Shown here piece by piece: positions 14,327 through 32,000 of a stretch of DNA of 32,000 bases. The notes beneath the pieces are model-generated. The model worked only from the letters and a program-made list of their open reading frames with translations. It made no database searches and was not told the DNA's origin. The translations under genes were made by a program, and so were the position numbers. The stretch comes from Xylanibacter ruminicola 23 (lineage in GTDB: Bacteria; Bacteroidota; Bacteroidia; Bacteroidales; Bacteroidaceae), in assembly GCF_000025925.1 (NCBI RefSeq), contig NC_014033.1:3510001-3542000 (forward strand), given 5' to 3'. Position 1 is the first letter of the stretch. Each line of letters begins with the position of its first letter.

Positions 14327-14328
14327 CA

Positions 14329-15288
14329 ATGAAGAAGTCATTGATATTTGCACTCGCCCTCGTGGCGGGTGCTTCTTTATCTACAGTAGATGCTGCCAAG
14401 AAAAAGAAGGTGGTAGTAAAGGAGGAGGCTCCTGTTGTTGAGGCTTTCAAACTCGCTACCAGTTCTGATTCTATCAGCTATACTGCAGGTATGAGTAGCA
14501 CAATGGGTTTGGTTAACTTCCTGCTTCAGCAGAAGGTAGATACTGCTTACATGGCTGATTTTGTACGTGGATTTAACGAGACTGTTTCAAGAAATCTCGA
14601 CAATCCCCAGGAGAAGGCTTATATGATGGGTATCACCATCGCTCAGCAGCTGGTTGACCGCATGATGCCTGGTGTGGCTAAAGAACTTGAGGGAACTCCC
14701 GACTCGTTGGTTTCGGGTGCTTTCTTCAAAGGTTTTACCGATGCCCTGCTGCAGGATACTACTTTCTTTAAGGTGGATGCTGCCGAGAACATCTTCAGAA
14801 CCAAGATGGAGGCCAACAAGGCTGAGAAGGAAGAGCGACTCTATGGCGCAAACCGCGAGGCTGGCCGTCAGTTCCTGGCCGAGAATGCTAAGAAGGATGG
14901 TGTGATTACACTGCCCAGCGGACTCCAGTACAAGGTGCTTACCCAGGGAACAGGTGCTGTGCCTACCACCAGCGATAAGGTACAGGTACATTACGAGGGT
15001 CGTCTGATCGACGGCACCGTATTCGATGCCTCAAGAAATCATGGCGACGAGCCTGCTGAGTTCCGTCCAACTGATGTGATCAAGGGCTGGACCGAGGCAC
15101 TTACCATGATGCCTGTAGGTTCAAAGTGGCAGGTTTATATCCCCTTTGAACTGGCTTACGGTAGTCGCGATGCCGGACAAATAAAACCTTACAGCGCGTT
15201 GATTTTCGATATTGAGCTTGTTGGAATCGTAGGTGACAAACCTGCACCAGCAAAGACCGCAAAATCGTCGAAAAAAGCTAAGAAATAA
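14329..15288 (+). CDS. FKBP-type peptidyl-prolyl isomerase, secreted (Mip/FkpA-like) with Lys-rich tail
   Basis: Signal peptide MKKSLIFALALVAGASLSTVDA|A. FKBP domain HYEGRLIDGTVFDASRNHGDEPAEFRPTDVIKGWTEAL. C-terminal tail KPAPAKTAKSSKKAKK. Confidence 0.9.
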   Translation: MKKSLIFALALVAGASLSTVDAAKKKKVVVKEEAPVVEAFKLATSSDSISYTAGMSSTMGLVNFLLQQKVDTAYMADFVRGFNETVSRNLDNPQEKAYMMGITIAQQLVDRMMPGVAKELEGTPDSLVSGAFFKGFTDALLQDTTFFKVDAAENIFRTKMEANKAEKEERLYGANREAGRQFLAENAKKDGVITLPSGLQYKVLTQGTGAVPTTSDKVQVHYEGRLIDGTVFDASRNHGDEPAEFRPTDVIKGWTEALTMMPVGSKWQVYIPFELAYGSRDAGQIKPYSALIFDIELVGIVGDKPAPAKTAKSSKKAKK

Positions 15289-15291
15289 GCA

Positions 15292-15321
15292 AGTGTGTCA
15301 CAAAAGTGGCACACTTTTTTA
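15292..15321 (+). terminator. Intrinsic terminator after the FKBP trio
   Basis: Stem AGTGTGTCAC (15292-15301) / GTGGCACACT (15306-15315) with one G-U pair, loop AAAA, then TTTTTT. Confidence 0.7.
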
Positions 15322-15362
15322 ATTTTTTCTTCAAAAAAGTTGCATTGTTCAATTAATTTGCG

Positions 15363-15370
15363 TAATTTTG
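15363..15370 (+). promoter_or_regulatory. -7 promoter box for the lrp-peptidase-cyclase operon
   Basis: TAATTTTG, 30 nt upstream of ATG 15400. Confidence 0.5.
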
Positions 15371-15399
15371 CTGACAAAATGTAACTAAAGGGAGAAAAA

Positions 15400-15879
15400 A
15401 TGGAAAAAATTGATTTTTTGGACAAAAAGATTCTGAGTATCCTTTCCAAGAATGCACGTATTCCTTTCAAGGATGTTGCTGCAGAATGTAATGTATCGCG
15501 AGCTGCTATCCACCAGCGTGTTCAGCACCTGATTGATGCCGAAGTGATTACAGGTAGTGGCTTCGATGTTAATCCTAAGAGTTTAGGTTATTCTACTTGT
15601 ACCTACGTGGGTATCACCCTTGAAAAGGGATCGATGTATAAAGAGGTGGTAGAGCGTTTGCAGCATATCCCCGAGATAGTAGAATGTCACTTCACTACTG
15701 GTCCTTATACGATGATGGTTAAGCTCTATGCTAAGGATAACGAGCAGCTGATGGAATTGCTGAATGGCAAGCTGCAGGGTATTCCTGGCGTAGTTGCTAC
15801 CGAAACATTGATCTCGTTGGAACAGAGTTTGAAACGTGAGATTCCCATCGTGCTCGACGATGAAGACAAAAAGCTATGA
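15400..15879 (+). CDS. Lrp/AsnC-family transcriptional regulator
   Basis: N-terminal HTH (LDKKILSILSKNARIPFKDVAAECNVSRAAIHQRVQHL) plus a C-terminal ligand-binding RAM-like domain. 159 aa. Confidence 0.9.
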   Translation: MEKIDFLDKKILSILSKNARIPFKDVAAECNVSRAAIHQRVQHLIDAEVITGSGFDVNPKSLGYSTCTYVGITLEKGSMYKEVVERLQHIPEIVECHFTTGPYTMMVKLYAKDNEQLMELLNGKLQGIPGVVATETLISLEQSLKREIPIVLDDEDKKL

Positions 15880-17591
15880 GCAGATTTGAACTCCAGTCGC
15901 ATCTGAATGATGTGTATGCCCACTTCCCAGAAGCTGAGAAGCGTCCTGTGATTGGTATTACTGGCAATTACGAAGACCTGACATGTAAGTTGGGTCGAGG
16001 CTATTATCAGTCGGTAGTAGCAGCAGGTGGTGTGCCCGTTGTTATTCCGCCTGTGGCCGATAAGCATGTAATTGTAAATACCTTAGAGCATATCGACGCC
16101 CTTATCCTGAGTGGTGGAGGTGATATCAATCCCCTTTGGGCAGGCGAGGAGCCTTCGCCCAAGCTGCATGGTATCAATCAGGAACGCGACCTGCCCGAAT
16201 TGTTGATTGCCCGTTTGGCCTACAACCGTCAGATTCCTATGCTGGGTATCTGTCGTGGTATCCAGACGCTGGCTACAGCGTTTGGCGGCAAGGTGGCACA
16301 GGACATCAGCGATGTGGCAACCATCAAGCATTCGCAGGATGCCGACCGTTCGGAACCTACACATAGCGTGATTATCGACGAAGATTCAAGTTTGTTCGAT
16401 ATTTATAAATCTACCAAGGTGATGGTTAACTCGTTCCATCATCAGGCTGTGGCCGAAGCTGGCGATAAGTTCAGAGTAATAGCCAAGTCGCCCGATGGTA
16501 TCATCGAAGCGATGGAGAGTAGCGAGTTTAAATCGATATTGGGTGTTCAGTGGCATCCCGAGTGTTTGGAAGAAGGCCTGCCCTTGTTCCAGTGGTTGGT
16601 TAACGAGGCCAAGAGTTTTCGTGAAGCTCATACCACTCACGATCGTGTGCTTACACTCGATACCCATTGCGATACACCTATGTTCTTTCCTCAGGGCATA
16701 CACTTTGAGCAGCGCGACCCCAAGATTCTTGTAGATTTGCACAAGATGACCGAAGGTCGTCAGGATGCTACCATCATGGTAGCTTATCTGCCCCAGCCAA
16801 CCGAGAATCCTACGGCCTTTGCTGATAGCATTTTCGACCAGATTGAGGTGATTGTTGGGCAGAACAGCGATTATGTACGTATCGCTAACACGCCTCGCGA
16901 CCTCTGGATGAACAAGCATCAGGGCTTGAAGAGCATTATGCTTGGTATCGAGAACGGTATCGCTATCGACGGTAAGCTGGAGAATCTGCAGCATTTTGTG
17001 GATCGCGGTATCGTATATATGACTCTCTGTCATAATGGTGATAACGATATTTGCGATTCGGCTTCGAAAACACAGCACACGCATCATGGTGTGAGTGCTT
17101 TCGGCGAGCAGGTTATCAAGGAGATGAACCGTTTGGGCGTGCTTGTTGATATGAGCCATGCTGGCGAGGAGAGCTTCTATCAGGCGCTCGAAATCAGCAG
17201 CAAACCTATTGTTTGCAGTCACTCGTCGGCACGTGCGCTTTGCGATCATCCTCGTAACCTTACCGACGACCAGATGCGTGCCCTTGCACAGAAAGGTGGC
17301 GTAGCACAGACTACCATCTATCACGGATTCCTGAAGAAGGATGGCGAGGCTACCATCAACGATGTGATTGCTCACTTAGAGCATGCCATTGATGTGATGG
17401 GTATCGACCATGTGGGTCTTGGTACCGACTTTGATGGCGACGGTGGTGTTCGTGGCTTGGCCGATTCGTCGGAACTGATTAATTTTACCCGTAGATTGCT
17501 GGCCCGTCGCTTCAGTGAGCACGACATCCAGAAAATCTGGGGTGGTAACTTCCTGCGTGTGATGGAGGAAGTACAAAAAGTTAGATATTAA
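15876..17591 (+). CDS. Two-domain fusion: peptidase C26 / class-I glutamine amidotransferase-like gamma-glutamyl hydrolase (aa ~20-245) plus M19 renal-type dipeptidase (aa ~256-571)
   Basis: ATGA overlap with the lrp stop. C26 part: LSGGGDINP, nucleophile GICRGIQ, QWHPE. M19 part: LDTHCDTP (HxD), MTLCHNGDNDI, VDMSHAGE, VCSHSSARALCDHPRNLTDDQ, GLGTDFDG, IWGGNFLRV. Confidence 0.85.
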   Translation: MSRFELQSHLNDVYAHFPEAEKRPVIGITGNYEDLTCKLGRGYYQSVVAAGGVPVVIPPVADKHVIVNTLEHIDALILSGGGDINPLWAGEEPSPKLHGINQERDLPELLIARLAYNRQIPMLGICRGIQTLATAFGGKVAQDISDVATIKHSQDADRSEPTHSVIIDEDSSLFDIYKSTKVMVNSFHHQAVAEAGDKFRVIAKSPDGIIEAMESSEFKSILGVQWHPECLEEGLPLFQWLVNEAKSFREAHTTHDRVLTLDTHCDTPMFFPQGIHFEQRDPKILVDLHKMTEGRQDATIMVAYLPQPTENPTAFADSIFDQIEVIVGQNSDYVRIANTPRDLWMNKHQGLKSIMLGIENGIAIDGKLENLQHFVDRGIVYMTLCHNGDNDICDSASKTQHTHHGVSAFGEQVIKEMNRLGVLVDMSHAGEESFYQALEISSKPIVCSHSSARALCDHPRNLTDDQMRALAQKGGVAQTTIYHGFLKKDGEATINDVIAHLEHAIDVMGIDHVGLGTDFDGDGGVRGLADSSELINFTRRLLARRFSEHDIQKIWGGNFLRVMEEVQKVRY

Positions 17592-17593
17592 AC

Positions 17594-18583
17594 ATGAATA
17601 AGAATATTTTTGCGGTTATATCGCTGGTGCTTTTGGTGGCCAGTTGTGGTAATTTAAAGAAGCAGACTACCGATGAGTCGGCTTCTTTGCAGCCTGTTGG
17701 TCCTGTGTTCTGTGCCGATAGTGCTTATCTGTACTGTCAGGCTCAGTGCGATTTCGGTCCACGAACCATGAACAGCAAGGCGCACGACGATTGCGAAAAG
17801 TGGATTATCTCAAAGTTCGAGAGTTTCGGCATGCAGGTAACCCCACAGAAAGCTGTGTTGAAGGGCTACGATGGTACATCGCTCAACAGCACCAACATCA
17901 TTGCCAGCTATCGTCCTGATCTGACCGACCGCGTATTGCTGTGTGCCCACTGGGACAGTCGTCCTTGGGCTGATAACGATCCCGACGAGGCTAACTGGAA
18001 AACACCTGTGATGGCTGCTAACGATGGTGCATCGGGCGTGGCTGTGATGTTGGAGATTGCCCGTTTGCTCTCTAAGGATACCTTGCAGCTTGGTGTTGAT
18101 TTTATCTGCTTTGATGCCGAAGACTGGGGCGTACCACAGTGGAACGAGGATAATTTCGATAGCGAGTCGTGGGCGCTTGGTGCTCAGTATTGGTCGACTA
18201 ATCTGCATAAGAAAGGCTATCGTGCCCGCTTTGGTATCCTGCTTGATATGGTAGGCGGTCAGGGTGCGCAGTTCTATAAAGAGGCCATGTCTGTTCAGTA
18301 TGCCAATCATATCGTAGAGAAAGTATGGCGCGCTGCTCAGGTAGTAGGTTACGGTAGCTTGTTCCCCTCGCAGCAGGGTACTGGCGTTACCGACGATCAT
18401 ATCTCGGTGAACACCAAGGCTAAGATTCCAACTATCGATATCATCCCTTATTATCCTAACTGCGAGCAGAGTTCGTTCGGACCTACTTGGCATACCGTTA
18501 ACGATGATATGGAACATATCGACAAAAATACCCTACAGGCAGTAGGGCAGACATTAATTCAGGTACTCTTCTCCGAGAAGTAG
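17594..18583 (+). CDS. Glutaminyl-peptide cyclotransferase (M28-fold, animal-type QC), lipoprotein
   Basis: Lipobox LLVASC|GN. LLCAHWDSRPWADND, AANDGASGVAVMLEIARLL, FICFDAEDWG. Starts 3 nt after the preceding stop. Stop TAG. Confidence 0.85.
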   Translation: MNKNIFAVISLVLLVASCGNLKKQTTDESASLQPVGPVFCADSAYLYCQAQCDFGPRTMNSKAHDDCEKWIISKFESFGMQVTPQKAVLKGYDGTSLNSTNIIASYRPDLTDRVLLCAHWDSRPWADNDPDEANWKTPVMAANDGASGVAVMLEIARLLSKDTLQLGVDFICFDAEDWGVPQWNEDNFDSESWALGAQYWSTNLHKKGYRARFGILLDMVGGQGAQFYKEAMSVQYANHIVEKVWRAAQVVGYGSLFPSQQGTGVTDDHISVNTKAKIPTIDIIPYYPNCEQSSFGPTWHTVNDDMEHIDKNTLQAVGQTLIQVLFSEK

Positions 18584-18594
18584 TACCTGAATTA
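18555..18594. terminator. Long hairpin spanning the QC stop codon, between convergent genes
   Basis: TAATTCAGGTACTCTTCT (18555-18572) pairs with AGAAG.AGTACCTGAATTA (18576-18594), with a 1-nt bulge and a 3-nt loop. It is the only structure in the 26-nt gap between the convergent stops. Confidence 0.5.
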
Positions 18595-18609
18595 TTCTTC
18601 TTGTAATTC

Positions 18610-19692
18610 TTATTTCTTAGGTTGCTCGGCTTCCAACTTCTCTACGGCGCCTGTCAAGGTGTTGAGAAGTAGGCGTGTGGTGTATTTCTTGTTGAACAAA
18701 GCACCACTCAGCAGCTCTACATTGCCGAACTGGGCTGCAGGAAACTCGTTGCTGACAATCTGATTCTTAGCATCGAAGATGGTTGAGCGCAACTTGCCTG
18801 GGATGTTTACATAGATGCCCGACTGCTGCGGCTTGGCAGCTTTCTTGGGATCTACGGGCGCAGGTTCGTCAACCGTTTTCAGGTCCTCTATATTAATATA
18901 ATAAGGTGTACCCGACAAATCATCGCTGTCAACCACTCCGTAATCAGGCGAGAAACGGAACAGTACATCGCGTTTCGTTGGCTTGTCAACCACGTAGGTA
19001 AACGTATGTGTGGTGGTATCGTTCTCGGTGGTGCCGATAAACATACTGGTGAGCGCCTCGTTCTGTGTGTTCAGTTCCTCCAGCATCAGTTTCAGTTGCT
19101 CGCCATCCTTAGGCATAAAGTCGGCCTGGCCCTTGGCCAGCATGCTTTTGCTCTCACGTATCTCGTAGATCTCCTGAGCAGTAAGCTCGGCCATCTTGGC
19201 GGTGCTGCCTGCCGAGAGAATCTCTTCGTTCAGATACGATTTGGGCGATTTCTTTAAAGGACGGATCTGCTGCACTGGGGCAGAAATGCTCTTAGACTGC
19301 TGCTTGGCATCGGTGTTGATGGCTAGCAGGATACCCTTGTCGCTCAGGCGTACGTTGCAGGCCGATGTCTTGGCATCAAACTTCACAGCGTAACACTTCG
19401 ATGTGTCGGCTACAGCAAATGGCTCCTGCTTTACCGACAGGATGCGATATTTGGTAGATGCGCTGGCAGGCACATCTTTCATACGTAGAAATTTCTCCGA
19501 ATACTTGCAGAATTCACCTGGGGTATAGGTACTCTTCTCCACCTGCATGGTAACGCGGATGGCTGTTTTGGGCAGATAATATACGGCGCCCTCGCTGGTA
19601 ACACCAGGTTTGTACGAACTGATTACGGTTTGTGCCAGCGAACTGGCAGTGCCTAATGTAAAGGCTATCAATAAAGTGCTAAATAATTTCAT
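18610..19692 (-). CDS. Secreted hypothetical protein (360 aa); possibly DUF4831-like (recalled from memory, unverified)
   Basis: Signal peptide MKLFSTLLIAFTLGTASSLA|Q. ATGA overlap with the nnr stop, so it is translationally coupled. No catalytic motif recognised. Confidence 0.7.
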   Translation of the reverse strand: MKLFSTLLIAFTLGTASSLAQTVISSYKPGVTSEGAVYYLPKTAIRVTMQVEKSTYTPGEFCKYSEKFLRMKDVPASASTKYRILSVKQEPFAVADTSKCYAVKFDAKTSACNVRLSDKGILLAINTDAKQQSKSISAPVQQIRPLKKSPKSYLNEEILSAGSTAKMAELTAQEIYEIRESKSMLAKGQADFMPKDGEQLKLMLEELNTQNEALTSMFIGTTENDTTTHTFTYVVDKPTKRDVLFRFSPDYGVVDSDDLSGTPYYINIEDLKTVDEPAPVDPKKAAKPQQSGIYVNIPGKLRSTIFDAKNQIVSNEFPAAQFGNVELLSGALFNKKYTTRLLLNTLTGAVEKLEAEQPKK

Positions 19693-21200
19693 TCATTAAG
19701 TCGTTTAAATGCATAAGGCAAGTTCTGAATCAAATCGCTGGCTATTACGCTTTCCTCGCCCAGCTCGCGAGCGGCAATGTCGCCAGCCAGTCCGTGCAGA
19801 TACATACCTACAACACATGCGTTTTCTTGATTATAGCCACGAGCCAGCAGTCCTGTGATGATACCTGTTAGCACGTCGCCGCTACCGGCAGTAGCCATAC
19901 CGGCATTACCAGTAGAGTTAAAGATGATATGACCGTCGGGCAGGCACAGCGAGGTGTGGTGCCCTTTCAGTACGATGTAGGCCTGCAGGCGCTCAGCCAG
20001 ATCGCGCGCCTTCATCAGACGCTCAAAGCTATCGCCCGAATGACCTTCCAAACGGTCGAATTCCTTGGGGTGGGGGGTCATGATGATACCCTTGGGCAGT
20101 TGCTGCAGCCATGCGCGATGACTGGCCAGAATATTAATGGCGTCGGCATCTACCACTGTGGGGCATTGACTGCGGCGCAGCTGTGCAATGATGGCAATTG
20201 CCGTTTGCTCGCTGGTTCCCAAGCCAGGACCAATGCCCAACGCATTGAAGTCTTCGGTGTCAACCGCCTCCGAGAAAGTGGTTTCCTCTCTGTCGAACTG
20301 TATGATGGCTTCGGGAACGCTCACCTGCAGAATGTTGCAGTTGCGTTTGGGTGTGTGGGTAGTGACCTTTCCTACACCTACGCGCAAACATGCTTTGGTG
20401 GCCAGCACCGAAGCACCTGCCATACCGTAGCTGCCGGCAATAATCAGGGCGTTGCCCATCTTGCCTTTGTGGGCAAACGGGTCGCGCTTCAGCAGGCGTG
20501 GGCGCACGTCGTTCTCCTCCAGCAGCGTATAGTTGGCATCAATCTTCTCCATGCCCTGTTTGCTCAGTCGGATATCCAGCACCTTCAGTTTGCCGATGAA
20601 TATCTGGTTTTCGGGGAACAGGAACGACAGCTTCGGCAACTGCAGTGTTAGCGTCATATCGGCACGGATAATGTTGGCTCTTACGTTGTAAGTGTTGTCT
20701 TCGGTCATCAGTCCCGATGGCACATCGATACTTACCACCTGAGCGGGCGAGGCGTTGATGTATTTCACGAGCGACGAGAAACCACCGGCCAACGGCTTGT
20801 TGATGCCCGATCCGAACAGTCCGTCAACCACCAGCATGCCCTCCTCTAACTGTGGGGGCTCAAACTCCTGGGTTACCTCAATCAGCGCTTTCGAGCGTTT
20901 CTCAATCAAACGCTTCTTGTTTATCATGCAGTCTTCCGAGAGATGACCTGATATGTTAAAAAGGTAGGCTGTTACATCGTAGTTTTTGTCAATCAGCATG
21001 CGGGCAACGGCCAGTGCGTCGCCGCCATTATTGCCTGGACCTGCGAATATGATGACGGGCGTGGTATAACCCCAGCTGTCGGCGATAGCTTGGGTCAGGG
21101 CTTTAGCGGCACGCTCCATCAGGTCGACCGACTTAATGGGCTCGTTCTCTATGGTGTATTTGTCCAATTCGTGGACTTGTGCGCTCGTAAATATCTTCAT
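19689..21200 (-). CDS. nnr: Bifunctional NAD(P)H-hydrate repair enzyme (epimerase + ADP-dependent dehydratase)
   Basis: Start moved to ATG 21200 (MKIFTSAQVHELD) because the -7 box lies at 21208-21215. YjeF_N motif FAGPGNNGGDALAVAR. C-terminal kinase-fold motif ATAGSGDVLTGIITGLLA. Confidence 0.9.
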   Translation of the reverse strand: MKIFTSAQVHELDKYTIENEPIKSVDLMERAAKALTQAIADSWGYTTPVIIFAGPGNNGGDALAVARMLIDKNYDVTAYLFNISGHLSEDCMINKKRLIEKRSKALIEVTQEFEPPQLEEGMLVVDGLFGSGINKPLAGGFSSLVKYINASPAQVVSIDVPSGLMTEDNTYNVRANIIRADMTLTLQLPKLSFLFPENQIFIGKLKVLDIRLSKQGMEKIDANYTLLEENDVRPRLLKRDPFAHKGKMGNALIIAGSYGMAGASVLATKACLRVGVGKVTTHTPKRNCNILQVSVPEAIIQFDREETTFSEAVDTEDFNALGIGPGLGTSEQTAIAIIAQLRRSQCPTVVDADAINILASHRAWLQQLPKGIIMTPHPKEFDRLEGHSGDSFERLMKARDLAERLQAYIVLKGHHTSLCLPDGHIIFNSTGNAGMATAGSGDVLTGIITGLLARGYNQENACVVGMYLHGLAGDIAARELGEESVIASDLIQNLPYAFKRLNE

Positions 21201-21291: not shown

Positions 21292-21828
21292 ATGAGTATC
21301 GTAAAGATAAAGGACAAGTCGTTCAAGATCTCCATTACGGAGGCTGAGATTAAGGAGCGTGTAAAGGCTGTTGCACAGCAGATTAGTAAGGATATGGAGG
21401 GCAAGAATCCTCTGTTGTTAGGTGTGCTGAATGGCGCTTTTATGTTTGCTGCCGATCTGATGCGCGAGATGACTATTCCTTGCGAGATTTCGTTTGTTAA
21501 GCTGGCCTCTTATCAGGGTACCACTTCTACTGGTAAAATCAAGGAGGTGTTCGGTATCAACGAAGACTTGACCAATCGTACGGTGATTATTGTAGAGGAT
21601 ATTGTGGAGAGCGGACTCACCATGAAGCAGATGATTGAGTCGTTAGGCACACGTAATCCCGCATCTATTCATATCTGCACCCTTTTCTTCAAGCCCAGCA
21701 AGCTGAAGGAGAAAATTAACCCCGAGTATGTTGCCTTCAGCATTCCTGACGACTTTATCCTGGGTTACGGACTTGATTACGATCAGCAGGGTCGCGGACT
21801 GAAAGATGTATACACCATTATCGAGTAA
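21292..21828 (+). CDS. hpt: Hypoxanthine(-guanine) phosphoribosyltransferase
   Basis: PRPP-binding motif VIIVEDIVESGLTM, LLGVLNGAFMFAADL, GYGLDYD. 178 aa. Confidence 0.93.
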   Translation: MSIVKIKDKSFKISITEAEIKERVKAVAQQISKDMEGKNPLLLGVLNGAFMFAADLMREMTIPCEISFVKLASYQGTTSTGKIKEVFGINEDLTNRTVIIVEDIVESGLTMKQMIESLGTRNPASIHICTLFFKPSKLKEKINPEYVAFSIPDDFILGYGLDYDQQGRGLKDVYTIIE

Positions 21829-21858
21829 GTAACTTAAATTAAACTAAATATCAGGATA

Positions 21859-22431
21859 ATGAAGAATATCGTTATTTTTGGTGCTCCCGGTTCAGGTAAG
21901 GGAACACAGAGTGATAAGATGATTGAGAAGTACGGTTTGAACCACATTTCAACTGGTGATGTACTTCGTGGTGAAATTAAGAATGGTACCGAGCTGGGTA
22001 AGACTGCTGCCAGCTATATCGAGAAGGGACAGCTGATCCCCGACGATCTGATGGTAAGCATTCTCGCTTCGGTTTACGATAGCTTCGGACGTGATAGCAA
22101 GGGTGTTATCTTCGATGGTTTCCCCCGCACCATCCCACAGGCCGAGGCCCTGAAGAAGATGCTCGACGAGCGTGGCGACAAGGTTGCTGCTATGATCGAG
22201 CTCGATGTTCCCGAGGACGAGCTGATGAAGCGCCTCATTCTGCGTGGTCAGCAGAGCGGCCGTGCCGACGATAATGAGGAGACCATCAAGAAGCGTCTCG
22301 TGGTTTACCACTCTCAGACAATGCCACTTATCGAGTGGTACAAGCAGGAGGGTGTTCACTATCACATCGACGGTCTGGGTGAGCTCGACCGCATTTTTGC
22401 AGACATTTGCCAGGTTATTGACAATATCTAA
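21859..22431 (+). CDS. adk: Adenylate kinase (short-lid type)
   Basis: P-loop IFGAPGSGKGTQ, STGDVLR, DGFPRT, GRADDNEETIKKRL. 190 aa. Confidence 0.96.
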   Translation: MKNIVIFGAPGSGKGTQSDKMIEKYGLNHISTGDVLRGEIKNGTELGKTAASYIEKGQLIPDDLMVSILASVYDSFGRDSKGVIFDGFPRTIPQAEALKKMLDERGDKVAAMIELDVPEDELMKRLILRGQQSGRADDNEETIKKRLVVYHSQTMPLIEWYKQEGVHYHIDGLGELDRIFADICQVIDNI

Positions 22432-23601
22432 ATGGAGAGTAATTTCGTAGACTACGTAAAGATTTACTGCCGCTCTGGAAAGGGTGGTAAGGGCAGTATG
22501 CACTTGCGCCATGTAAAGTATAATCCCAATGGCGGTCCTGATGGTGGTGATGGTGGAAAAGGCGGAAGCATTATTCTGCGTGGAAACCATAACTACTGGA
22601 CTTTGCTCCACTTAAAGTACGAGCGCCATATTTTTGCCGAGCACGGTGGAAATGGCGGTCGCGACAAGTGTCATGGTACCGACGGAAAGGATGTTTACAT
22701 TGATGTGCCTTGTGGTACCGTGGTGTATAATGCCGAAACCGGTAAGTACGTCTGCGATGTTACATACGATGGTCAGGAAGTCATGCTGCTTAAGGGCGGT
22801 CGTGGCGGATTGGGTAACTTCCAGTTCCGCACAGCCACCAATCAGGCGCCCCGTTATGCGCAGCCTGGTGAGCCCATGCAGGAGATGACTATTATTCTTG
22901 AATTGAAACTTTTAGCTGATGTGGGCTTGGTAGGTTTTCCTAATGCAGGAAAATCTACCCTGGTCTCATCGCTGTCAAATGCTAAGCCCAAGATTGCCAA
23001 TTACCCATTTACTACGATGGAGCCTTCGCTGGGTATCGTAGGTTATCGCGACAACAAGTCGTTTGTGATGGCCGATATTCCTGGTATTATCGAAGGTGCC
23101 TCTGAAGGTAAGGGCTTGGGACTTAGATTCTTACGACATATTGAGCGCAACTCGCTCCTGCTGTTCATGGTACCAGGTGATACCGATGATATCAAGCGTG
23201 AGTATGAGATTCTGCTCAACGAACTTCAGCAGTTCAATCCCGAGATGCTCGACAAGCATCGTGTGCTGGCCGTTACCAAGTGCGACCTGCTTGATGAGGA
23301 GTTGGTTGAGATGCTGAAGGAAACCCTGCCTCAGGATCTGCCTGTGGTATTCATTTCAGCCGTAACGGGTTATGGTCTCGACGAACTCAAGGATGTGCTT
23401 TGGAACGAGTTGAATGCCGAAAGCAACAAGCTTAACGTCATCACCTCGGAGGATTCGCTGGTACATCGCGACAAGGATATGAGCCGTTTTGCTCAGGAGC
23501 TTGCCGACGAGGGCGAGGACGAGGATATCGAGTACATCGACGAGGATGATATCGAAGATATCGAGGACTTTGAATACGAGGACTTCGACGACGAAGCATA
23601 A
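22432..23601 (+). CDS. obg: GTPase Obg/CgtA with strongly acidic C-terminal tail
   Basis: Starts directly after the adk stop. Gly-rich Obg fold ([24 protein letters not shown]). G1 [10 protein letters not shown]3 DIPG, G4 TKCD. Tail [31 protein letters not shown]. Confidence 0.96.
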
Positions 23602-23639: not shown

Positions 23640-23670
23640 CCGATTTATAACTTTAAATCGGATTTTTTTT
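23640..23670 (+). terminator. Intrinsic terminator after obg
   Basis: Stem CCGATTTA (23640-23647) / TAAATCGG (23654-23661), then ATTTTTTTT. Confidence 0.7.
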
Positions 23671-23743: not shown

Positions 23744-26700
23744 ATGCAGAAAAGATTGCTCTTTCTGGTTGCTTTAATGTTAACTTTCTCGTTAACATTG
23801 ATGGCACAAATCACAACTTCAAGTATGGCTGGAAAGGTGACCCTCGACACAGCGAATGGCGAGGAAGTCATCGGTGCTACAGTTGTGGCTGTACACGAGC
23901 CCTCTGGTACTCGTTACACAGCAGTAACTAATACCACAGGTCGTTTCTCGATCAATGGTATGCGTACTGGTGGTCCTTACGCAGTGACCATCTCTTACAT
24001 TGGTTTCCAGCCCAAAACCGTCAAGGGTATTACCCTCCAGCTGGCTGAAACCTACAACCTGAATGTATTCCTCACCGAGGATGCTACCGAGCTTGCAGAG
24101 GTTGTTGTAAGCGGTAAGGCTTCAAAGTTTGCTGCTGAGAAGACGGGTGCTGCTACTAACATTAACAGTACGCAGATCACAAACCTGCCAACCGTTAGCC
24201 GTTCTATTACAGATGTAACACGTCTGTCTCCTTACGGAGGTAACGGCATGAGCTTCGCTGGTAGCGATGGTCGTAACGCTAACTTCACCGTTGATGGTGC
24301 TAACTTCAACAACAACTTCGGTCTTTCTGACAAGTTGCCTGGTGGTGGTAACCCAATCTCTATCGATGCTATCGAGGAGTTGCAGGTTGTTATCTCTCCA
24401 TACGATGTTCGTCAGACCAACTTCATCGGTGGTGGTGTAAACGCTATTACCAAGTCGGGTACTAACACCTTCAAGGGTAGTGCTTATGTTTACCACAAGA
24501 ACGAGAACATGCAGGGTGACGCTGTAAATCGTCAGCAGATCCAGGGCGCTCGTGAGAAGGCTCAGACTACTACTTACGGTTTCACACTGGGTGGTCCAAT
24601 CATTAAGAACAAGCTCTTCTTCTTCGTAAACGGTGAAATGATCAAGATTCCTTCAATCGTTAACCGTTGGAAGGGTTCAGATGATGGTAAGGCCGATGCC
24701 GACAACTACATCTCTCGTACTACTAACAAGGATCTTGAGGCTGTTTCTAAGTACATGGCCAGCAAGTATGGTTATGATACCGGTTCATGGACCAGCTTCC
24801 CTGCTGATGAGAGCAACTACAAGCTGATGGCTCGTTTGGACTGGAACATCACCGATCGTCATCACCTGGCTTTGCGCTATAACTATACAAAGAATAATAT
24901 CTGGAACTCGCCTAACGGTACTTCTATGGACGGTGGTACTCGTATGGCTTCTTACCGTATGTCACAGACTTCAATGTCGTTCGCTAACTCAATGTACTCA
25001 ATGGAGAACCTCGTTCACTCTTGGTCATTGGATTTGAACAGCCGTCTGACCGACAACCTGTCGAACCAGTTCCTGGCTACTATCTCTAAGCTCGACGACG
25101 TTCGTGGCACTAACTCTGCTGAGTTCCCATTCATCGATATCACTCGCGATGGCGATAACTATATGGCTCTCGGTTACGAGCTGTTTACTTGGAACAACGC
25201 CGTTCATAACACTATCTGGAACATCAAGGATGATGTTACCTATTATATGGGCGACCACAAGATTATGGCTGGTATTACCTTCGAGCATCAGATGGCCGAC
25301 AACCAGTACATGCGTAATGGTTCTGGTTACTATCGCTACAACATCACCGACGATATGTATGTAGGCGGTGTACTGCAGCCAGATATGCTGTTCAACAGCA
25401 CACCTGAGGTATTCTGCTTGACTTACGGTTACGATGGTGAGGCTGCTCCTGCAGCTCGCGTACAGTTCAACCGTCCTGGTATCTATGCTCAGGATGAGTG
25501 GAACGTTAACAATAAGCTGAAGCTCACATACGGTCTGCGTGTTGACGGTCTGTTCTTCAACAACAGCGACCTGATGACTAACGCTGCTATTCTGAACCTC
25601 GACTACAACGGTCGTCACATCGATACCGGTAAGTGGCCTAAGAACAGCATCACCTTCTCTCCACGTCTCGGCTTCACCTACGATGTATTCGGTGACAAGA
25701 GTCTGAAGGTTCGTGGTGGTACTGGTCTTTTCTCTGGTCGTCTGCCTTTGGTATTCTTCACCAACATGCCAACCAACGGTGGTCTGGTTCAGTATCAGGC
25801 ACAGATCAACGAGAAGAACGCTGCCAAGAAGGGCTTCTCTATGGACGTGTTCGCTGGTGGTCCTATGACCAAGGTTAGCGATATGATTGCTAAGCTGCAG
25901 AGCCTGGGCTATCCTACAACTGTTAAGCCTGAGGACGGAACTGTTCCTTCAGCTGTTAACGGTGTAGATCCTAAGTTCAAGATGCCTTAGGTATGGAAGA
26001 CTTCTGTTGCTATCGACTATCAGCTGCCTGTTGACTTCCCATTCTCAGTTTCTGTTGAGGGTATCTACAACAAGACTATCAATGCTGTGTCAATCTCTGA
26101 CTGGAGCATTAAGAACGTAGGTGGTTTCGCTCGCTTCAACGGTGCCGACAACCGTCCTATCTTCCCCGATGATTTCCGCAGCGGTACAAAGGCATTCGTG
26201 CTCGAGAACACCAGCAAGGGTTACGGTTGGAGTGCTAACGTTACTCTGAACGCTCAGCCTGCTGATTGGATTAGCTTGATGGCTGCTTATACTCACACTG
26301 TATCTAAGGAGGTTACCGGTATGCCTGGTTCGGCTGCTGAGTCTGCCTTCACATACGTTCCTACTTACGAGGGTCCAAACAACATCAAGTTGCACAACTC
26401 TCAGTATGTAACTCCTGATCGTCTGATCGCTTCTGCTACTATCCACGATAAGTGCGGTAACCACTATAACTTCATCTACGAGGCATATCGTGGTGGCTAC
26501 AACTACTCTTACACAACTGTTAACGATATGAACGGCGACGGTTACAACTACGACGCTATCTATATCCCAACAGATGATCAGGTAGGTGTTGGTACAGGCG
26601 ACTTCCGCTTCAAGACTCAGGACGACCTGACTCGCTTCATGGACTATGTTCATAAGGATAGCTACCTGAGCAAGCATCAGGGTACTTACGCCGAGGCTTA

Positions 26701-27034
26701 CAGCGTTTACTCTCCATGGGTACACCGCATCGACTTCGGTTACAAGCACGACTTCAAGTTCAACGTAGGTCAGACTAAGCACATGCTGCAGCTCACCTTC
26801 GATATGAAGAACGTTCTTAACTTCTTCAACTCTTCTTGGGGTGTTGCTAAGCACCTGAATCCTGAGATTGGTAGCGAGGCTAAGATCCTGAAGTACGAGG
26901 GCGTTGATGCACAGGGTTATGCAACCTTCTCTACACCTTCTTCTATCAGCGGTAATACTCAGACTTGGACTACCAACTACGCTATCGGTCAGTGCTGGTA
27001 CGCTTCTGTAGGTATCAAGTATTATTTCAACTAA
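23744..27034 (+). pseudogene. TonB-dependent receptor (CarboxypepD_reg-like N-domain + plug + large barrel; not SusC-type) interrupted by one in-frame TAG at 25988-25990
   Basis: ORF-track entries 23744-25990 and 26087-27034 are in the same frame, and the 32 codons between them are open. Signal peptide ...LTLMA|Q. CarboxypepD_reg-like segment GKVTLDT...GPYAVTISYIGFQ. Plug motifs (ISIDAIEELQVVISPYDVRQTNFIGGGVNAITKSGTN). C-terminal aromatic end ...VGIKYYFN. Confidence 0.8.
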
Positions 27035-27054: not shown

Positions 27055-28569
27055 ATGAAACTTAAATATTTCATTCCGTCTCTCGTAGCAGTTGTAGCAG
27101 CTGTATTCACAAGCTGTTCTGACGGTAAGGATGCTACCTATCTTGAGGGAATTCGCGTTTCTCAGTCGTATGTAGCTCTGAACACTGCTGGTGGTTCTGC
27201 CTCTATCGATGTAACCACCAATGGTAGCTGGACTGTTACTGAGGTTCCCAACTGGCTCACCGTTTCGCCTGCCTCTGGTACAGGTAACGGTACTATCACT
27301 TTCTCGGCCGACGCTGGCGAGGGTCGTAGCGGTTCAGTAAAGCTTAACTGTGGCGACGAGACTCAGATCGTCAACATCATTCAGGGTGTTGTAACTATCA
27401 GCCCTGCTACTTGTGCTGAGGTTCTGGCTGGTCCCGACTCTAAGACTTATCAGGTAACTGGTACTGTTACCAGCATTGTAAATACCACTTATGGTAACTG
27501 GTACTTGAACGATGGTACTGGTGAGGTTTACATCTATGGTACACTCGACTCTAAGGGTAGCACCAAGAACTTCAGCAGCTGGGGCCTCGAGGTAGGCGAC
27601 CAGATTACTGTTCAGGGTCCAAAGACTACTTATAATGGTACTGTAGAGCTGGTTGACGTAACTGTTGTTAAGATTGTTAAGTCACTCATCAAGGTTGATT
27701 CTCTCACAGTTGGTGGCGTTAAGGCTACTGAGCTGCCTGTAGCTGGTGGCGAGATCACTGCTCACCTCACCTGCAAGGGTACTGGCGTAGCTGTTGAGAT
27801 TCCTGCCGACGCTAAGGATTGGCTGGGTGTTACCTCTTCAACAGTAGGTACTAACCCAACTGTTACCTTCTATGCTAAGGCTAACGAGGGTGGCGACCGT
27901 GAGACAACTGTTACCTTCAAGACCACCGATGGTTCTAAGGAGTACAGCTCACAGGCTACTATTTCTCAGAAGGGTGCTATCGTTGAGTGCAGCATTGCCG
28001 ACTTCCTGGCTGCTGCTGTAGGTAATACTCAGTTCCGCCTCACTGGTGTTATCACCAAGATTGCTAATGCATCTTATGGTAACATCTACATTAAGGACTA
28101 CTCTGGCGAGACTTACGTTTATGGCGTAGGTTCTAAGGGCGACTTCGAGAAGCTTGGCCTGAAGGGGGGTGATGTTATTACTCTCGTAGGTAAGCGTGGC
28201 GAGTACAAGGGAACTGCCCAGATGACTGGTGGTCAGTTCGAGAAGTCAATCAAGGTAACTGAGGTTTCAATCGCCGAGTTCCTGGCTAAGGAGGATGCTG
28301 CTAATGTTTACTATAGAGTATCTGGTACTATCGACGAGATTGCCAACGATACTTATGGTAACCTGTACATCACAGATGGTACCAACCGCCTGTATGTATA
28401 TGGCACATATCCTGGATGGGGTGCTACCGGTGATAACCGTAAGGGCGCTATCAAGAATCTGGGTATCGCAGTAGGCGACAAGCTCACCGTTATCGGTGTT
28501 AAGTCAACCTACAAGGATACTCCTCAGGTTAATGGTGGTATCTACTTCTCTCACGAGAAAGCTGAGTAA
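27055..28569 (+). CDS. Lipoprotein with modular architecture BACON-like / OB-like / BACON-like / OB-like / OB-like (putative surface nucleic-acid-binding protein)
   Basis: Lipobox AAVFTSC|SDGKD. BACON-like segments at aa 34-110 (SQSYVALNTAGGSASIDVTTNGSWTV...WLTVSPASGTGNGTITFSA) and aa 212-306. Three mutually similar ~95-aa repeats at aa 115-207, 309-399 and 402-500. The repeats share the core xTGxVxxIxNxxYGNxYxxDxxGxxYVYG ... GDxxTVxGxxxxYxGTxxx. The OB-fold assignment is by pattern only. Confidence 0.85.
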   Translation: MKLKYFIPSLVAVVAAVFTSCSDGKDATYLEGIRVSQSYVALNTAGGSASIDVTTNGSWTVTEVPNWLTVSPASGTGNGTITFSADAGEGRSGSVKLNCGDETQIVNIIQGVVTISPATCAEVLAGPDSKTYQVTGTVTSIVNTTYGNWYLNDGTGEVYIYGTLDSKGSTKNFSSWGLEVGDQITVQGPKTTYNGTVELVDVTVVKIVKSLIKVDSLTVGGVKATELPVAGGEITAHLTCKGTGVAVEIPADAKDWLGVTSSTVGTNPTVTFYAKANEGGDRETTVTFKTTDGSKEYSSQATISQKGAIVECSIADFLAAAVGNTQFRLTGVITKIANASYGNIYIKDYSGETYVYGVGSKGDFEKLGLKGGDVITLVGKRGEYKGTAQMTGGQFEKSIKVTEVSIAEFLAKEDAANVYYRVSGTIDEIANDTYGNLYITDGTNRLYVYGTYPGWGATGDNRKGAIKNLGIAVGDKLTVIGVKSTYKDTPQVNGGIYFSHEKAE

Positions 28570-28594: not shown

Positions 28595-28633
28595 GCGCCA
28601 AAATGTTGTGGATAGCGACATTTTGGCGCTTTT
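28595..28633 (+). terminator. Strong hairpin/terminator between the lipoprotein and nuclease genes
   Basis: Perfect 12-bp stem GCGCCAAAATGT (28595-28606) / ACATTTTGGCGC (28618-28629), 11-nt loop, then TTTT. It ends 13 nt before the nuclease ATG. Confidence 0.65.
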
Positions 28634-28646: not shown

Positions 28647-29594
28647 ATGAATAAGATGTTTTATTCTTTAGCAGTCTTTGCATTTGTTGCTTGCGGTGGT
28701 GGTAGCAGTAGTAGCGATGGTCCTAATCCTACTCCCGATCCAACGCCTACACCTACACCAACTCCTACAGTAGGCAATGCTAATAAGAACGATGCTTCTG
28801 AGAATGCCTATCTGGCTCGTTTGGAAATGCCTAAGGCTCGTACCGATTCAAAGGTTATTACCCATACTACCAAGGATTATGGCGTAACCTATTCGGTAGA
28901 GTGGGATAGTAATATCCGTGCTCAGCGCTGGACTTGTTACGATATGAACAAGCGCAACGCTGCCAAGAACGGTAATACCCGTAAGTCGCTTTGGCCTGAT
29001 GGTGATCCCTGGAACTACGATCCCGATGTAGCTACGAGCGATCAGCAGGCCACCTATAGCGAGCTCAGCAAGAGCTATTATCCTGGTTCTAAGGATTATT
29101 ACGAAAAGGGTCACGTTTGTCCTTCAAACGACCGCCTTTATACCAAGGATGCTAACGAGCAGACTTTCTACATGACTAACATTCTGCCAATGGTAGGTAA
29201 GTTTAATGGTAAGCTTTGGCAGAAGATGGAGCTGCAGGTAAACAGCTGGGCTCAGAAGTTGGGCGATGGCGACACCATTTTTATCTGTAAAGGTGGTACC
29301 ATCGATAAGGCCGATCAGATTCTTGGCAAGACAATCAACAATCATGTCGTGCCCAAGTACTTCTTCATGGCGCTGTTGTTTAAGAACGCTTCTGGCCCCG
29401 TACGTATGTTAGGCTTCTGGGCCGAGCATCTGAACGAAGACCATTCGAACGATGCCCTGAAAGGCTATGTAGTAAGCATCGACGATCTGGAGCAGAAAAC
29501 AGGTATCGATTTCTTCTGTAACCTGCCCGACGATGTCGAGGAACAGTTAGAGGCTACGAAGAGCGAAGACATCATTTCTGCTTGGGGCCTTTAA
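28647..29594 (+). CDS. DNA/RNA non-specific endonuclease (Serratia NucA / Endonuclease_NS family), lipoprotein with Pro/Thr linker
   Basis: Start moved to ATG 28647 (MNKMFYSLAVFAFVAC|GGGSSSS), because the track start 28608 lies inside the terminator hairpin. Linker NPTPDPTPTPTPTPT. Catalytic block YYEKGHVCPSNDR (the DRGH-type His) and the metal-binding Asn in MTNILPM. Confidence 0.88.
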   Translation: MNKMFYSLAVFAFVACGGGSSSSDGPNPTPDPTPTPTPTPTVGNANKNDASENAYLARLEMPKARTDSKVITHTTKDYGVTYSVEWDSNIRAQRWTCYDMNKRNAAKNGNTRKSLWPDGDPWNYDPDVATSDQQATYSELSKSYYPGSKDYYEKGHVCPSNDRLYTKDANEQTFYMTNILPMVGKFNGKLWQKMELQVNSWAQKLGDGDTIFICKGGTIDKADQILGKTINNHVVPKYFFMALLFKNASGPVRMLGFWAEHLNEDHSNDALKGYVVSIDDLEQKTGIDFFCNLPDDVEEQLEATKSEDIISAWGL

Positions 29595-29758: not shown

Positions 29759-32000
29759 ATGAAAAGACTTTCTACATTACTATTTGTACTTTTGACAATA
29801 TCGCTTTCTGTTATGGCTCAGGTTACTACATCTGGTATTACAGGTGTGGTGATGGCTGATGGCGAAGAGGCTATCGGTGCTACCGTTACGGCCAAGCATG
29901 TGCCTTCGGGCTCTATCTATCGTGGTGTTACCAATATCGATGGTCACTACACGATTACAGGCATGAAGGCGGGCGGACCTTACGAGGTTGAAATATCGTA
30001 TATCGGTTTCCAGACATCGCGTTTTACCGATATCCAGTTGGCCCTGGGTCAGAATGCTGTGGTTGATGCCACGCTGAGCGAGGGCTCAGAGATGATTCAG
30101 GAGATTGTGGTAACAGCTAAGGCCAACAACACTATGCGTAGCGACCGTAGTGGCGCTGTAACCAGCCTGAACGCTAACCAGATGGCTGCTGTGCCTAATA
30201 TCGGTCGTTCTATGCTGGATATCATGAAGATGACGCCACAGTCGAGCTCGGCCAGCGGTATGGCTATTGGTGGTGGAAACTACCGCCAGTCGTATGTCAC
30301 CATCGATGGTGCCTCGTTCAACGATTCGTTCGGAATGGAACCCAGTCCGCTGCCTGGTGGCGGCACTCCCATCTCGCTCGAGGCACTCGATCAGATGACC
30401 GTTTCGGTTACGCCTTACGATGTGCGTCAGAGTGGTTTTACTGGCGGTGGTGTGAATGCGGTTACCAAGAGTGGTACCAACACCTTTAAGGGTATGGCCT
30501 ATACCTTCCTGACCAGTTCCGACCTGAAGGGTAAGAAGATTCGTAACGACCGGTTGCCCGTATCCAAGGGGCATAACAGCACCTTTGGCTTGAGCTTTGG
30601 CGGACCGATTATCCAGGATAAGCTCTTCTTCTTCCTTAACGGCGAGTACGAGGATAATGTGACGGCTGGCCCAGCCGTGATGGCTTATAACCGCAGCGAC
30701 CAGCCCTATTCGGCCACGAATCGTCGCCCCAAGTTGGCCGAGCTCGAGAGTCTGTCCACCTACATGCAGAACGCTTATGGTATTACCACAGGTCCTTGGC
30801 AGAATTATAACCTGAAAACGCCCGCCTACCGTATTCTGGCCCGTATCGACTGGAACATCAACGACGATCATAAGTTTAATGTGCGCTTCACCAAGTCGAA
30901 CCGTAAGGAGGCCAACCCCGCTTCGGCATCGCGTAGTATCGGTAGCAATCGCACCTCTATTATCTATGGTGGCAACCAGAACTCGTATGGCGGCAATACC
31001 GATTATGGTATGTCGTCGCTCTCAAGCCGTTATATGACCGAGTTCCGCTTCACTTCGGTGGCTGCCGAGCTCAATAGCAAGTTCGGTAAGCTGCATAACA
31101 CCCTGCGTGGCACCTACTCGTATCAGGACCAGCCCCGTAGCAACGAGTATGGTGTTGATGTACCTGTGGTTGAGATTGTGATGAGCGATGGTCAGGGCCA
31201 TTATCCTTACTGGGCGCTTACCGGCGATTTGTTTACTTATGGCAATGTGGCCAAAACCAAGACTACCGTGATTACCGACGAAATCAATATCCAGTTGGGT
31301 AAGCACAACCTGTTTGGCGGTTTGCAGTACGAGCACAACTGGGCTGCCAACGGCTATGCTCAGGCAGGTGCCGGCTATTATGCCTTCCAGGCCAGTCAGG
31401 ACGAGATAGATAAGGCCATCGTAAACAACGACTGGGGGCCGATTTTCGCAGTAGATCACACCCGCTTGTTTGGTATCACCTATGGCAATGGCGACAATCA
31501 CGATCATTTTTTGGCTAAGATGAGCACCAACCAGTGGTCGCTCTATCTGCAGGACAACATGAGCCTCTCCGATCGTTTCCGCATGTCGCTTGGTCTGCGT
31601 TTCGAGCTGCCGTCTTATCCCAGTCTGAAGGATAATTTCAACGAGGAGTATTATAAGATTAGCTTTGGTGGCGAGCATTTCCGCACCGATAACGTGCCAA
31701 ATGCCAGCATCTCGGTATCGCCGCGTGTGGGCTTCAACTGGGATATCACCGGCAATCGTAACCTGATACTGCGTGGTGGTTCGGGCCTCTTCATCGGTCG
31801 CCTGCCGTTTGTTTGGCTCATCTCGGCTGTAGGCAACTCAGGTATGGGACAAACCTCGTATATTGCCTCGCAAACCAAGGGTATTATTCCTACCTTTACC
31901 ACCAGTCAGCAGAATATGCTGCAGCAGATAGGTGCTCAGAGCAAGATTTCGGTGCCCAGCAGCGCCACTATCCTGAGCGATAACCTGCGTATGCCCAAAA
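29759..32000 (+). CDS. TonB-dependent receptor, paralogue of 23744-27034; 3' end outside window (absent from supplied ORF track)
   Basis: My own translation from ATG 29759 stays open to the window end (747 codons). It begins MKRLSTLLFVLLTISLSVMA|QVTTSGITGVVMADGEEAIGATVTAKHVPSGSIYRGVTNIDGHYTITGMKAGGPYEVEISYIGFQ, and contains ISLEALDQMTVSVTPYDVRQSGFTGGGVNAVTKSGTNTFKG. It is collinear with TBDR1 up to ...SDNLRMPK. The three minus-strand track ORFs here are antisense shadows. Confidence 0.88.
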   Translation, partial: MKRLSTLLFVLLTISLSVMAQVTTSGITGVVMADGEEAIGATVTAKHVPSGSIYRGVTNIDGHYTITGMKAGGPYEVEISYIGFQTSRFTDIQLALGQNAVVDATLSEGSEMIQEIVVTAKANNTMRSDRSGAVTSLNANQMAAVPNIGRSMLDIMKMTPQSSSASGMAIGGGNYRQSYVTIDGASFNDSFGMEPSPLPGGGTPISLEALDQMTVSVTPYDVRQSGFTGGGVNAVTKSGTNTFKGMAYTFLTSSDLKGKKIRNDRLPVSKGHNSTFGLSFGGPIIQDKLFFFLNGEYEDNVTAGPAVMAYNRSDQPYSATNRRPKLAELESLSTYMQNAYGITTGPWQNYNLKTPAYRILARIDWNINDDHKFNVRFTKSNRKEANPASASRSIGSNRTSIIYGGNQNSYGGNTDYGMSSLSSRYMTEFRFTSVAAELNSKFGKLHNTLRGTYSYQDQPRSNEYGVDVPVVEIVMSDGQGHYPYWALTGDLFTYGNVAKTKTTVITDEINIQLGKHNLFGGLQYEHNWAANGYAQAGAGYYAFQASQDEIDKAIVNNDWGPIFAVDHTRLFGITYGNGDNHDHFLAKMSTNQWSLYLQDNMSLSDRFRMSLGLRFELPSYPSLKDNFNEEYYKISFGGEHFRTDNVPNASISVSPRVGFNWDITGNRNLILRGGSGLFIGRLPFVWLISAVGNSGMGQTSYIASQTKGIIPTFTTSQQNMLQQIGAQSKISVPSSATILSDNLRMPK

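Follow-up and report, generated by a model that had tools for sequence, protein, structure and literature searches.

Analysis of a 32,000-nucleotide stretch of Xylanibacter ruminicola 23 (contig NC_014033.1, positions 3,510,001 to 3,542,000 of the forward strand; hereafter, the window) identified two adjacent genes, one encoding a TonB-dependent receptor (TBDR1) and the other a lipoprotein of 504 amino acids (aa) composed of BACON domains and oligonucleotide/oligosaccharide-binding (OB) folds. On balance, this lipoprotein is probably the surface-exposed substrate-binding subunit of a two-gene TonB-dependent unit for nucleic-acid import that resembles the ddb loci of Bacteroides. Since its gene always follows the gene of a TonB-dependent transporter and often lies beside nucleases, the protein would most likely capture fragments of extracellular DNA or RNA for import. 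The family is widespread and, judging from sequence comparisons, seems best filed as a variant of the recently described Bacteroidota transporter systems for nucleic-acid utilization.

Conserved pairing of the lipoprotein with a TonB-dependent receptor

The two genes and the parts of the lipoprotein are as follows.

23744–27034, forward strand: TonB-dependent receptor TBDR1, with an N-terminal CarboxypepD_reg domain, a weak Plug match and an OMP_b-brl_4 barrel (Pfam).
27055–28569, forward strand: gene of the 504-aa BACON/OB lipoprotein, beginning 20 bp past the TBDR1 stop codon.
27055–27117, forward strand: signal peptide and lipobox (..AVFTS-C21), then the acidic, export-signal-like SDGKD, as seen in the translation; C21 is invariant in the family.
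27154–27384, forward strand: BACON domain 1, aa 34–110, a predicted Ig-like beta-sandwich (PF13004, 39.5 bits; BACON_2, 41.1 bits; all-beta model).
27385–27687, forward strand: OB fold 1 (OB1), aa 111–211, the most conserved domain of the family (BLASTP between repeats, alignment, model).
27688–27972, forward strand: BACON domain 2, aa 212–306 (PF13004, 39.0 bits).
27973–28254, forward strand: OB fold 2 (OB2), aa 307–400 (BLASTP between repeats, model; weak PF01336 match, E 0.013).
28255–28566, forward strand: OB fold 3 (OB3), aa 401–504 (model with a predicted local distance difference test score, pLDDT, of 96.4; Foldseek matches to the OB folds of STN1, RPA32/14 and LysRS).

More than 5,500 homologs of the lipoprotein were found, and a scan of a collection with one genome per species located at least 536 genomic places encoding it. 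Among 1.84 billion representatives, 3,687 clusters matched a profile of the three OB repeats at E<=0.001, and 109 of the best 150 clusters (formed at 50% identity) had the collinear BACON/OB architecture. The combination of BACON domains with OB modules, which a preliminary description of this DNA had taken to be unusual, is thus common; in a literature search, none of the 12 papers listed pairs 'BACON domain' with 'OB-fold'. The counts for related loci given below refer to the best 80 of the at least 536 places (L001–L080), whose lipoproteins are 57–79% identical to that of the window over the full length: these loci belong to rumen Prevotella, Muribaculaceae, Sodaliphilus and the marine Draconibacterium, Saccharicrinis and Maribellus.

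In all 78 loci that have upstream sequence, the gene directly ahead of that for the lipoprotein encodes a receptor of about 1,095 aa; the gap between the two genes is typically about 20–30 bp, and 20 bp in the window. The same pairing was observed in two distant relatives with 30–34% identity, L084 and L089, whose receptors are 31–38% identical to those of the window. The TBDR1-type receptor, not the nuclease encoded further downstream, is the conserved partner of the lipoprotein, and it is the main piece of context that was missing from the preliminary description. The TBDR1 translation contains a TonB-box-like motif, AEVVVSG; no sequence relatives of TBDR1 were found among solved structures at E<=0.001.

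The pair is flanked by two terminator-like hairpins.

23640–23661, forward strand: terminator-like hairpin between obg and TBDR1 (stem of 8 bp, then a T run), bounding the unit on its upstream side.
28595–28629, forward strand: intrinsic-terminator-like hairpin (15-bp stem followed by TTTT) at the end of the receptor–lipoprotein unit.

The downstream hairpin has a folding free energy of -24.5 kcal/mol and a z-score of -4.9, none of 200 shuffled sequences folding as well, and it lies only 17 nucleotides ahead of the start codon of the nuclease gene. Because of these flanking hairpins, the two genes of the pair appear to form one unit and the nuclease gene another.

Nucleases in the variable downstream slot

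The gene next to the lipoprotein gene in the window is the following.

28647–29594, forward strand: lipoprotein with a DNA/RNA non-specific endonuclease domain (Endonuclease_NS), 315 aa, lipobox FVAC (PF01223, E 5e-35); the same start is called in L081, a public contig encoding an identical BACON/OB lipoprotein.

The mechanically listed start, a GTG at 28608, falls inside the hairpin, and therefore the ATG at 28647 is the likely start of this gene. The catalytic domain of the enzyme is preceded by a Gly/Ser stretch and a linker rich in Pro and Thr (PNPTPDPTPTPTPTPT), which suggests, from the sequence, an enzyme tethered on a flexible stalk. The preliminary description was right in placing a nuclease beside the BACON/OB lipoprotein, but this neighbor is not its conserved partner.

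The content of the slot beside the lipoprotein gene was determined by clustering of open reading frames (ORFs), Pfam scans and in-frame searches. The slot holds a phosphodiesterase/nucleotide pyrophosphatase of the NPP type (PF01663, E 5e-87) in 26 of the 80 loci, Endonuclease I (PF04231, E 5e-62) in seven and Endonuclease_NS also in seven, so that a nuclease or phosphodiesterase from one of three unrelated families occupies it in 40 loci. The other occupants are a TlpA-like thioredoxin (seven loci), a paralogous receptor, unrelated genes or nothing; in Draconibacterium, genes assigned by eye as quinolinate synthase-like were seen there. From lineage to lineage, the downstream slot is a hot spot at which genes have been replaced. 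Two distant members of the family, L087 and L088, adjoin BACON-Endonuclease_NS and EEP genes, and in two relatives a nuclease is fused to the same OB repeat, namely Endonuclease_NS in P0270 and Endonuclease I in P0224. These fusions and the exchange of neighbors among non-homologous enzymes with the same class of substrate provide the strongest evidence on function.

The same neighborhood bears on another explanation, in which the lipoprotein would be an accessory of the nuclease, that is, a surface scaffold concentrating the substrate for a secreted or tethered enzyme independently of any transporter. The nuclease gene lies directly downstream in the window, and the fusions in the relatives join OB repeat and nuclease in one protein. 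Such an arrangement has precedents: in YhcR of B. subtilis, OB folds lie within the polypeptide of an extracellular nuclease. The OB fold of V. cholerae Xds is likewise in the same polypeptide as the extracellular nuclease (PMC6746945). Adjacency to a nuclease is not conserved, however, while adjacency to the receptor is constant; the strong terminator-like hairpin separates the lipoprotein and nuclease genes; and some loci, such as L001, have no nuclease within the flanks. This explanation is highly improbable, and we rejected it on account of the non-conserved nuclease and the hairpin between the two genes.

Domain structure of the lipoprotein

The preliminary description had seen three repeats of about 95 aa in the ORF at 27055–28569. 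The ORF is real and encodes 504 aa, the repeats are 36–40% identical to each other, the conversion of residue numbers into nucleotide positions was arithmetically right, and the three quoted core sequences occur verbatim in the translation. The pattern GDxxTVxG...Y.GT, said to follow each core, is exact in OB1, while OB2 has TL and OB3 has Y.DT at the corresponding places. The domain order is BACON, OB1, BACON, OB2, OB3.

The N-terminus of the protein reads MKLKYFIPSLVAVVAAVFTS-C21, ending at the lipobox cysteine, and two of the five residues after Cys21 (C-SDGKD) are aspartates. Acidic residues just after the cysteine are reportedly the export signal of Bacteroidota surface lipoproteins (Lauber 2016; Valguarnera 2018). 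A lipobox was found in 105 of 110 family representatives, 80 of these 105 having at least two Asp or Glu residues within six residues after the cysteine, which makes the previously suggested export signal plausible; the lipoprotein is probably exposed on the cell surface.

Both segments interleaved with the repeats and taken earlier for BACON domains scored above the PF13004 gathering threshold when searched alone (39.5 and 39.0 bits vs. 25), and the whole lipoprotein matched PF13004 in two stretches with E 4.8e-18. The two segments are homologous to each other (36% identity over 53 aa, E 7e-9 by BLASTP), and, as expected of BACON domains with their Ig-like sandwich, the AlphaFold2 model contains only beta strands at aa 33–110 and 212–305, with pLDDT of about 80–90, and its Foldseek matches are Ig-like. 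No NCBIfam model covering the lipoprotein was found, and the Pfam and NCBIfam scans revealed no nuclease domain in it.

The similarity among the three OB repeats is far beyond chance: the identity found by BLASTP is 36% for OB1/OB2 (E 8e-20), 39% for OB1/OB3 (E 4e-22) and 40% for OB2/OB3 (E 9e-23). The repeats are about 95–100 aa long, and their alignment has 23 invariant columns, including the motifs YGN, D, Y.YG and GD..T..G....Y..T. As modeled by AlphaFold2 (mean pLDDT 83), the whole protein consists of five separate domains, and all three repeats have the predicted order b1-b2-b3-helix-b4-b5 of the canonical OB fold, with a short helix ahead of each. A Foldseek search against the PDB with the whole five-domain model yielded only strings of Ig-like domains and was uninformative; therefore OB3 was modeled alone (pLDDT 96.4; predicted template modeling score, pTM, 0.88). 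The top 50 PDB matches of this model were all nucleic-acid-binding OB folds (probability 1.00, template modeling score about 0.6, E from 2.7e-4), namely STN1 in the complex of CST with single-stranded DNA, RPA32/RPA14 from Pyrococcus and human, and the anticodon-binding domain of LysRS. When PDB sequences were searched with the three-repeat profile, RPA32 was the best match (E 0.0055); a deeper OB3 profile gave no better result (E 0.03).

The tRNA_anti/YhcR-type class proposed earlier for these repeats agrees with the structural matches of OB3 and also with long relatives carrying the same repeat: 23 of 41 matched PF01336 at E<=1e-5 (best E 3.4e-31), nine matched RMI2 and four tRNA_anti_2. Two close homologs carry the JGI name 'YhcR'.

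Many family members (P0121–P0270) have C-terminal extensions of 130–600 aa or extra OB copies, up to 7–9 repeats in, for example, P0159 and P0230; some extensions contain Big_2 domains, and most are without a Pfam match. The median identity to the 109 collinear representatives is 61% for OB1 vs. 32–43% for the other domains. As a speculation, the high conservation of OB1 would fit docking on the receptor barrel.

The domain content could also be read as that of a SusE/F-type surface protein binding glycans or mucin, with the BACON domains and the OB-like barrels acting as carbohydrate-binding modules. BACON owes its name to a putative role in carbohydrate binding and often occurs in polysaccharide utilization loci, the OB fold takes its name from oligosaccharides as well as oligonucleotides, and a search of PDB sequences with the full-length lipoprotein gave as best match the BACON region of a GH16 enzyme (E 0.004). 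None of the 50 best structural matches of OB3 is a carbohydrate-binding module, however, and the structure search, which matched OB3 to OB folds only, did not produce the outcome that the preliminary description had named as refuting its reading, a placement of the repeats among carbohydrate-binding or other non-OB folds. Moreover, the receptor is not of the SusC type, its TIGR04056 score being 55.7 bits vs. the cut-off of 368 and confined to the N-terminal region, and neither a SusD gene nor a glycoside hydrolase or other carbohydrate-active enzyme was recognized among the scanned genes of the window and L081 or in the downstream slot of the related loci. A glycan-binding role is very unlikely, and we rejected it because no features of a polysaccharide locus were recognized among these genes.

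Comparison with known systems

Bacteroides thetaiotaomicron needs its ddbABCDEF genes to deplete exogenous DNA (Sharan et al., PNAS 2025, PMC12478041). This locus encodes nucleases, the TonB-dependent transporter DdbC and, adjacent to it, the DUF5689 lipoprotein DdbD, which was modeled as a DNA-binding partner or lid resembling the HIN domain of p202 (PMC12478041). B. thetaiotaomicron strains with an alternative type of the locus carry a BACON-domain gene (Bechon et al., PMC8851478).

The unit in the window is similar to the ddb locus (the BT3560/BT3561 region) in several respects: a transporter gene is followed by a gene for a surface lipoprotein; the proposed DNA-binding folds of DdbD are OB-like (HIN/p202-like); secreted or lipoprotein nucleases are encoded alongside, in the window the Endonuclease_NS lipoprotein at 28647–29594; and the content of the locus varies between strains and lineages. 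Unlike DdbD, which is defined by DUF5689, the lipoprotein in the window combines two BACON domains with three OB repeats of the tRNA_anti type. The enzymes differ as well, being Endonuclease_NS, Endonuclease I or NPP here, whereas the BT3562/3563 nucleases are of the EEP type (Bechon et al., PMC8851478).

Two relatives tie the BACON/OB family to the ddb family. In P0214 (810 aa) the domain order is BACON, OB, DUF5689, OB, OB, with DUF5689 in the place of BACON domain 2 of the window lipoprotein. At 973–3738 of L084, a 921-aa BACON-DUF5689-Endonuclease_NS protein is encoded immediately ahead of a receptor gene paired with one for a BACON/OB lipoprotein; in this locus the domain that is the hallmark of DdbD thus belongs to a nuclease. 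The DUF5689 segment of P0214, used as a query, retrieved only three proteins, and no adjacent TonB-dependent receptor gene was seen in their contexts, L082 and L083; at 5320–10433 of L082 the P0214 gene follows two genes for Mfa-like fimbrial proteins, and this neighborhood hints at a pilus-associated version of the module.

DdbCD was reported to be homologous to the natural-transformation pair RA0C_RS04915/RS04920 of Riemerella (PMC12478041). RA0C_RS04915 is an outer-membrane protein with CarboxypepD_reg and RA0C_RS04920 a protein with DUF5689 and DUF5017, and both are essential for natural transformation of Riemerella anatipestifer (PMC8459023). TBDR1 shares the architecture class of the Riemerella DdbC homolog; a relationship to DdbC itself (WP_008762511.1) would be putative. 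The pair in the window and the Riemerella pair have in common a receptor with an N-terminal carboxypeptidase-regulatory-like domain, an adjacent gene for a binding protein and, by implication, extracellular DNA as the substrate; they differ in the domain content of the lipoprotein and in that the Riemerella genes serve transformation, whereas the loci analyzed here lie amid degradative enzymes.

The same receptor and OB lipoprotein might accordingly take up DNA for natural transformation and not for nutrient scavenging. Besides the requirement for both Riemerella genes (PMC8459023) and the reported evolutionary relationship of the ddb system to them (PMC12478041), the occurrence of the pair as a conserved core unit in a housekeeping neighborhood would agree with this role. 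We consider it unlikely: the recurring neighbors are degradative, the NPP phosphodiesterases would reduce DNA to mononucleotides, and competence genes were not seen in the window.

In YhcR/COG4085 of B. subtilis, Xds of V. cholerae and the ExeM/NucH family, too, a nucleic-acid substrate is held by tRNA_anti-class OB folds located outside the cytoplasm. Unlike these nucleases, the window lipoprotein has no catalytic domain, and only the relatives P0270 and P0224 have a nuclease fusion. The arrangement of a TonB-dependent barrel and a cognate surface lipoprotein encoded by the next gene is shared with SusCD, BtuBG and XusAB, while the lipoprotein has neither the SusD TPR fold nor a beta-propeller, and the class of ligand suggested for it differs.

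Proposed role of the pair and evidence against it

We infer the following course of events from the gene order and the predicted folds. The lipid-anchored N-terminus would tether the lipoprotein to the outer leaflet, the two Ig-like BACON domains serving as spacers. The three OB folds, of the class found in RPA32, STN1 and tRNA-anticodon-binding domains, would capture fragments of extracellular nucleic acids, probably single-stranded or of oligonucleotide size, and hand them to the adjacent barrel, with which the lipoprotein would form a complex, for TonB-driven import. The nucleases or phosphodiesterases encoded in the slot, a different enzyme in different lineages, may cleave the polymer extracellularly or shorten it in the periplasm. 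The logic would be that of the Bacteroides ddbABCDEF and Riemerella transformation genes, with the BACON/OB lipoprotein in the position of DdbD (DUF5689).

Several observations weigh against this role. First, the TBDR1 gene contains a premature stop codon.

25988–25990, forward strand: in-frame TAG at codon 749 of 1,096 of TBDR1; the relatives have CAG, ATG, AAG or CAA at this site.

This comparison included 82 aligned receptor copies from the related loci, some of them being the paralogue described below. Over 12,946 bp, L081 differs from the window by one base, which is located in the TAG, and its receptor gene is intact (1,096 aa). Either a sequencing error or a nonsense mutation of very recent origin accounts for the stop codon; a real mutation would probably leave this strain with an inactive import unit.

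Second, no recognizable nuclease was found within the examined flanks in half of the related loci. Third, the lipoprotein of the window has no DUF5689 (PF18942) match at E<=1, and when the OB repeat was aligned by hhalign to either half of DUF5689, the result was collinear and non-significant (E 0.1 and 0.04), the DUF5689 profiles being shallow. Fourth, in the Pfam analysis of single segments, which had been proposed as a check, the BACON domains passed their threshold but the OB repeats fell below that of PF01336: the whole protein scored 17.9 bits (E 0.0029) vs. 27, OB2 alone scored 15.9 bits, and OB1 and OB3 alone had no match. Finally, the OB domains are acidic, with family median isoelectric points of 4.65 for OB1, 5.28 for OB2 and 4.86 for OB3, which is atypical of polyanion binders. 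The putative binding may use aromatic stacking, given the conserved YGN and Y.YG motifs, or bridging by cations, and may favor single-stranded or short substrates.

The acidity of the OB domains also fits a transporter subunit whose ligand is not a nucleic-acid polymer, being instead a nucleotide or dinucleotide cofactor, some other phosphodiester or anionic compound, or a protein or peptide. OB folds bind many types of ligands, the commonest neighbor is of the NPP type, which also acts on nucleotides and cofactors, and a TlpA-like thioredoxin is the neighbor in seven loci. Opposed to this are the true endonucleases of two unrelated families in the same slot, the endonuclease fusions of P0270 and P0224, and the structural neighbors, all of which are OB folds binding DNA or RNA. 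A ligand of this kind thus seems rather doubtful.

If the lipoprotein binds nucleic acids for import, a more specific and more tentative possibility is that the pair represents a second, DUF5689-free lineage of TonB-dependent nucleic-acid importers that is core in Prevotellaceae, Muribaculaceae and marine Marinilabiliales. Its acidic, aromatic-rich OB folds might prefer single-stranded DNA, RNA or oligonucleotides over duplexes, OB1 might form the lid of the barrel, and the slot might be refilled by each lineage. In that case, the import of oligonucleotides across the outer membrane would belong to the core traits of anaerobic Bacteroidota and be widespread among them, and it might be linked to the uptake of DNA for gene transfer.

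Rumen, gut and sediments are rich in extracellular DNA and RNA, yet it was not until 2025 that nucleic-acid uptake by Bacteroidota was described, and then for a single type of Bacteroides locus. With the BACON/OB family, the ddb principle would extend to hundreds of species in which the binding subunit is a different one. This subunit is built of recognizable OB folds, and therefore its ligand specificity (single- or double-stranded, DNA or RNA, length) can be tested with single domains. A function would thereby be assigned to proteins annotated just as 'BACON domain-containing protein', and BACON should not be taken as a marker of glycan metabolism.

Other genes of the window

Downstream of the nuclease gene lies a second receptor gene.

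29759–32000, running off the window end, forward strand: TBDR2, a paralogue 32% identical to TBDR1 with the same architecture (sequence comparison).

No lipoprotein gene follows TBDR2; in L081 the gene in this position encodes glycyl-tRNA synthetase. The TBDR2 paralogue was found in 12 of the 80 related loci.

The region 1–19700 is made up of housekeeping genes, among them those for a SpoIIE/HAMP phosphatase, the anaerobic ribonucleotide reductase NrdD, a histidine phosphatase, RpoN, IspG, a Sir2 deacetylase, two FKBP isomerases, a C26/M19 peptidase fusion and an M28 peptidase; genes for competence or polysaccharide utilization were not seen in it. Directly upstream of the two-gene unit (21292–23601) are the genes for hypoxanthine phosphoribosyltransferase, adenylate kinase and Obg, the first two being nucleotide-salvage genes. 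The same upstream arrangement was seen in the Prevotella loci L003 and L006 and was absent from the Draconibacterium locus L066, so that the adjacency of salvage genes may be coincidental.

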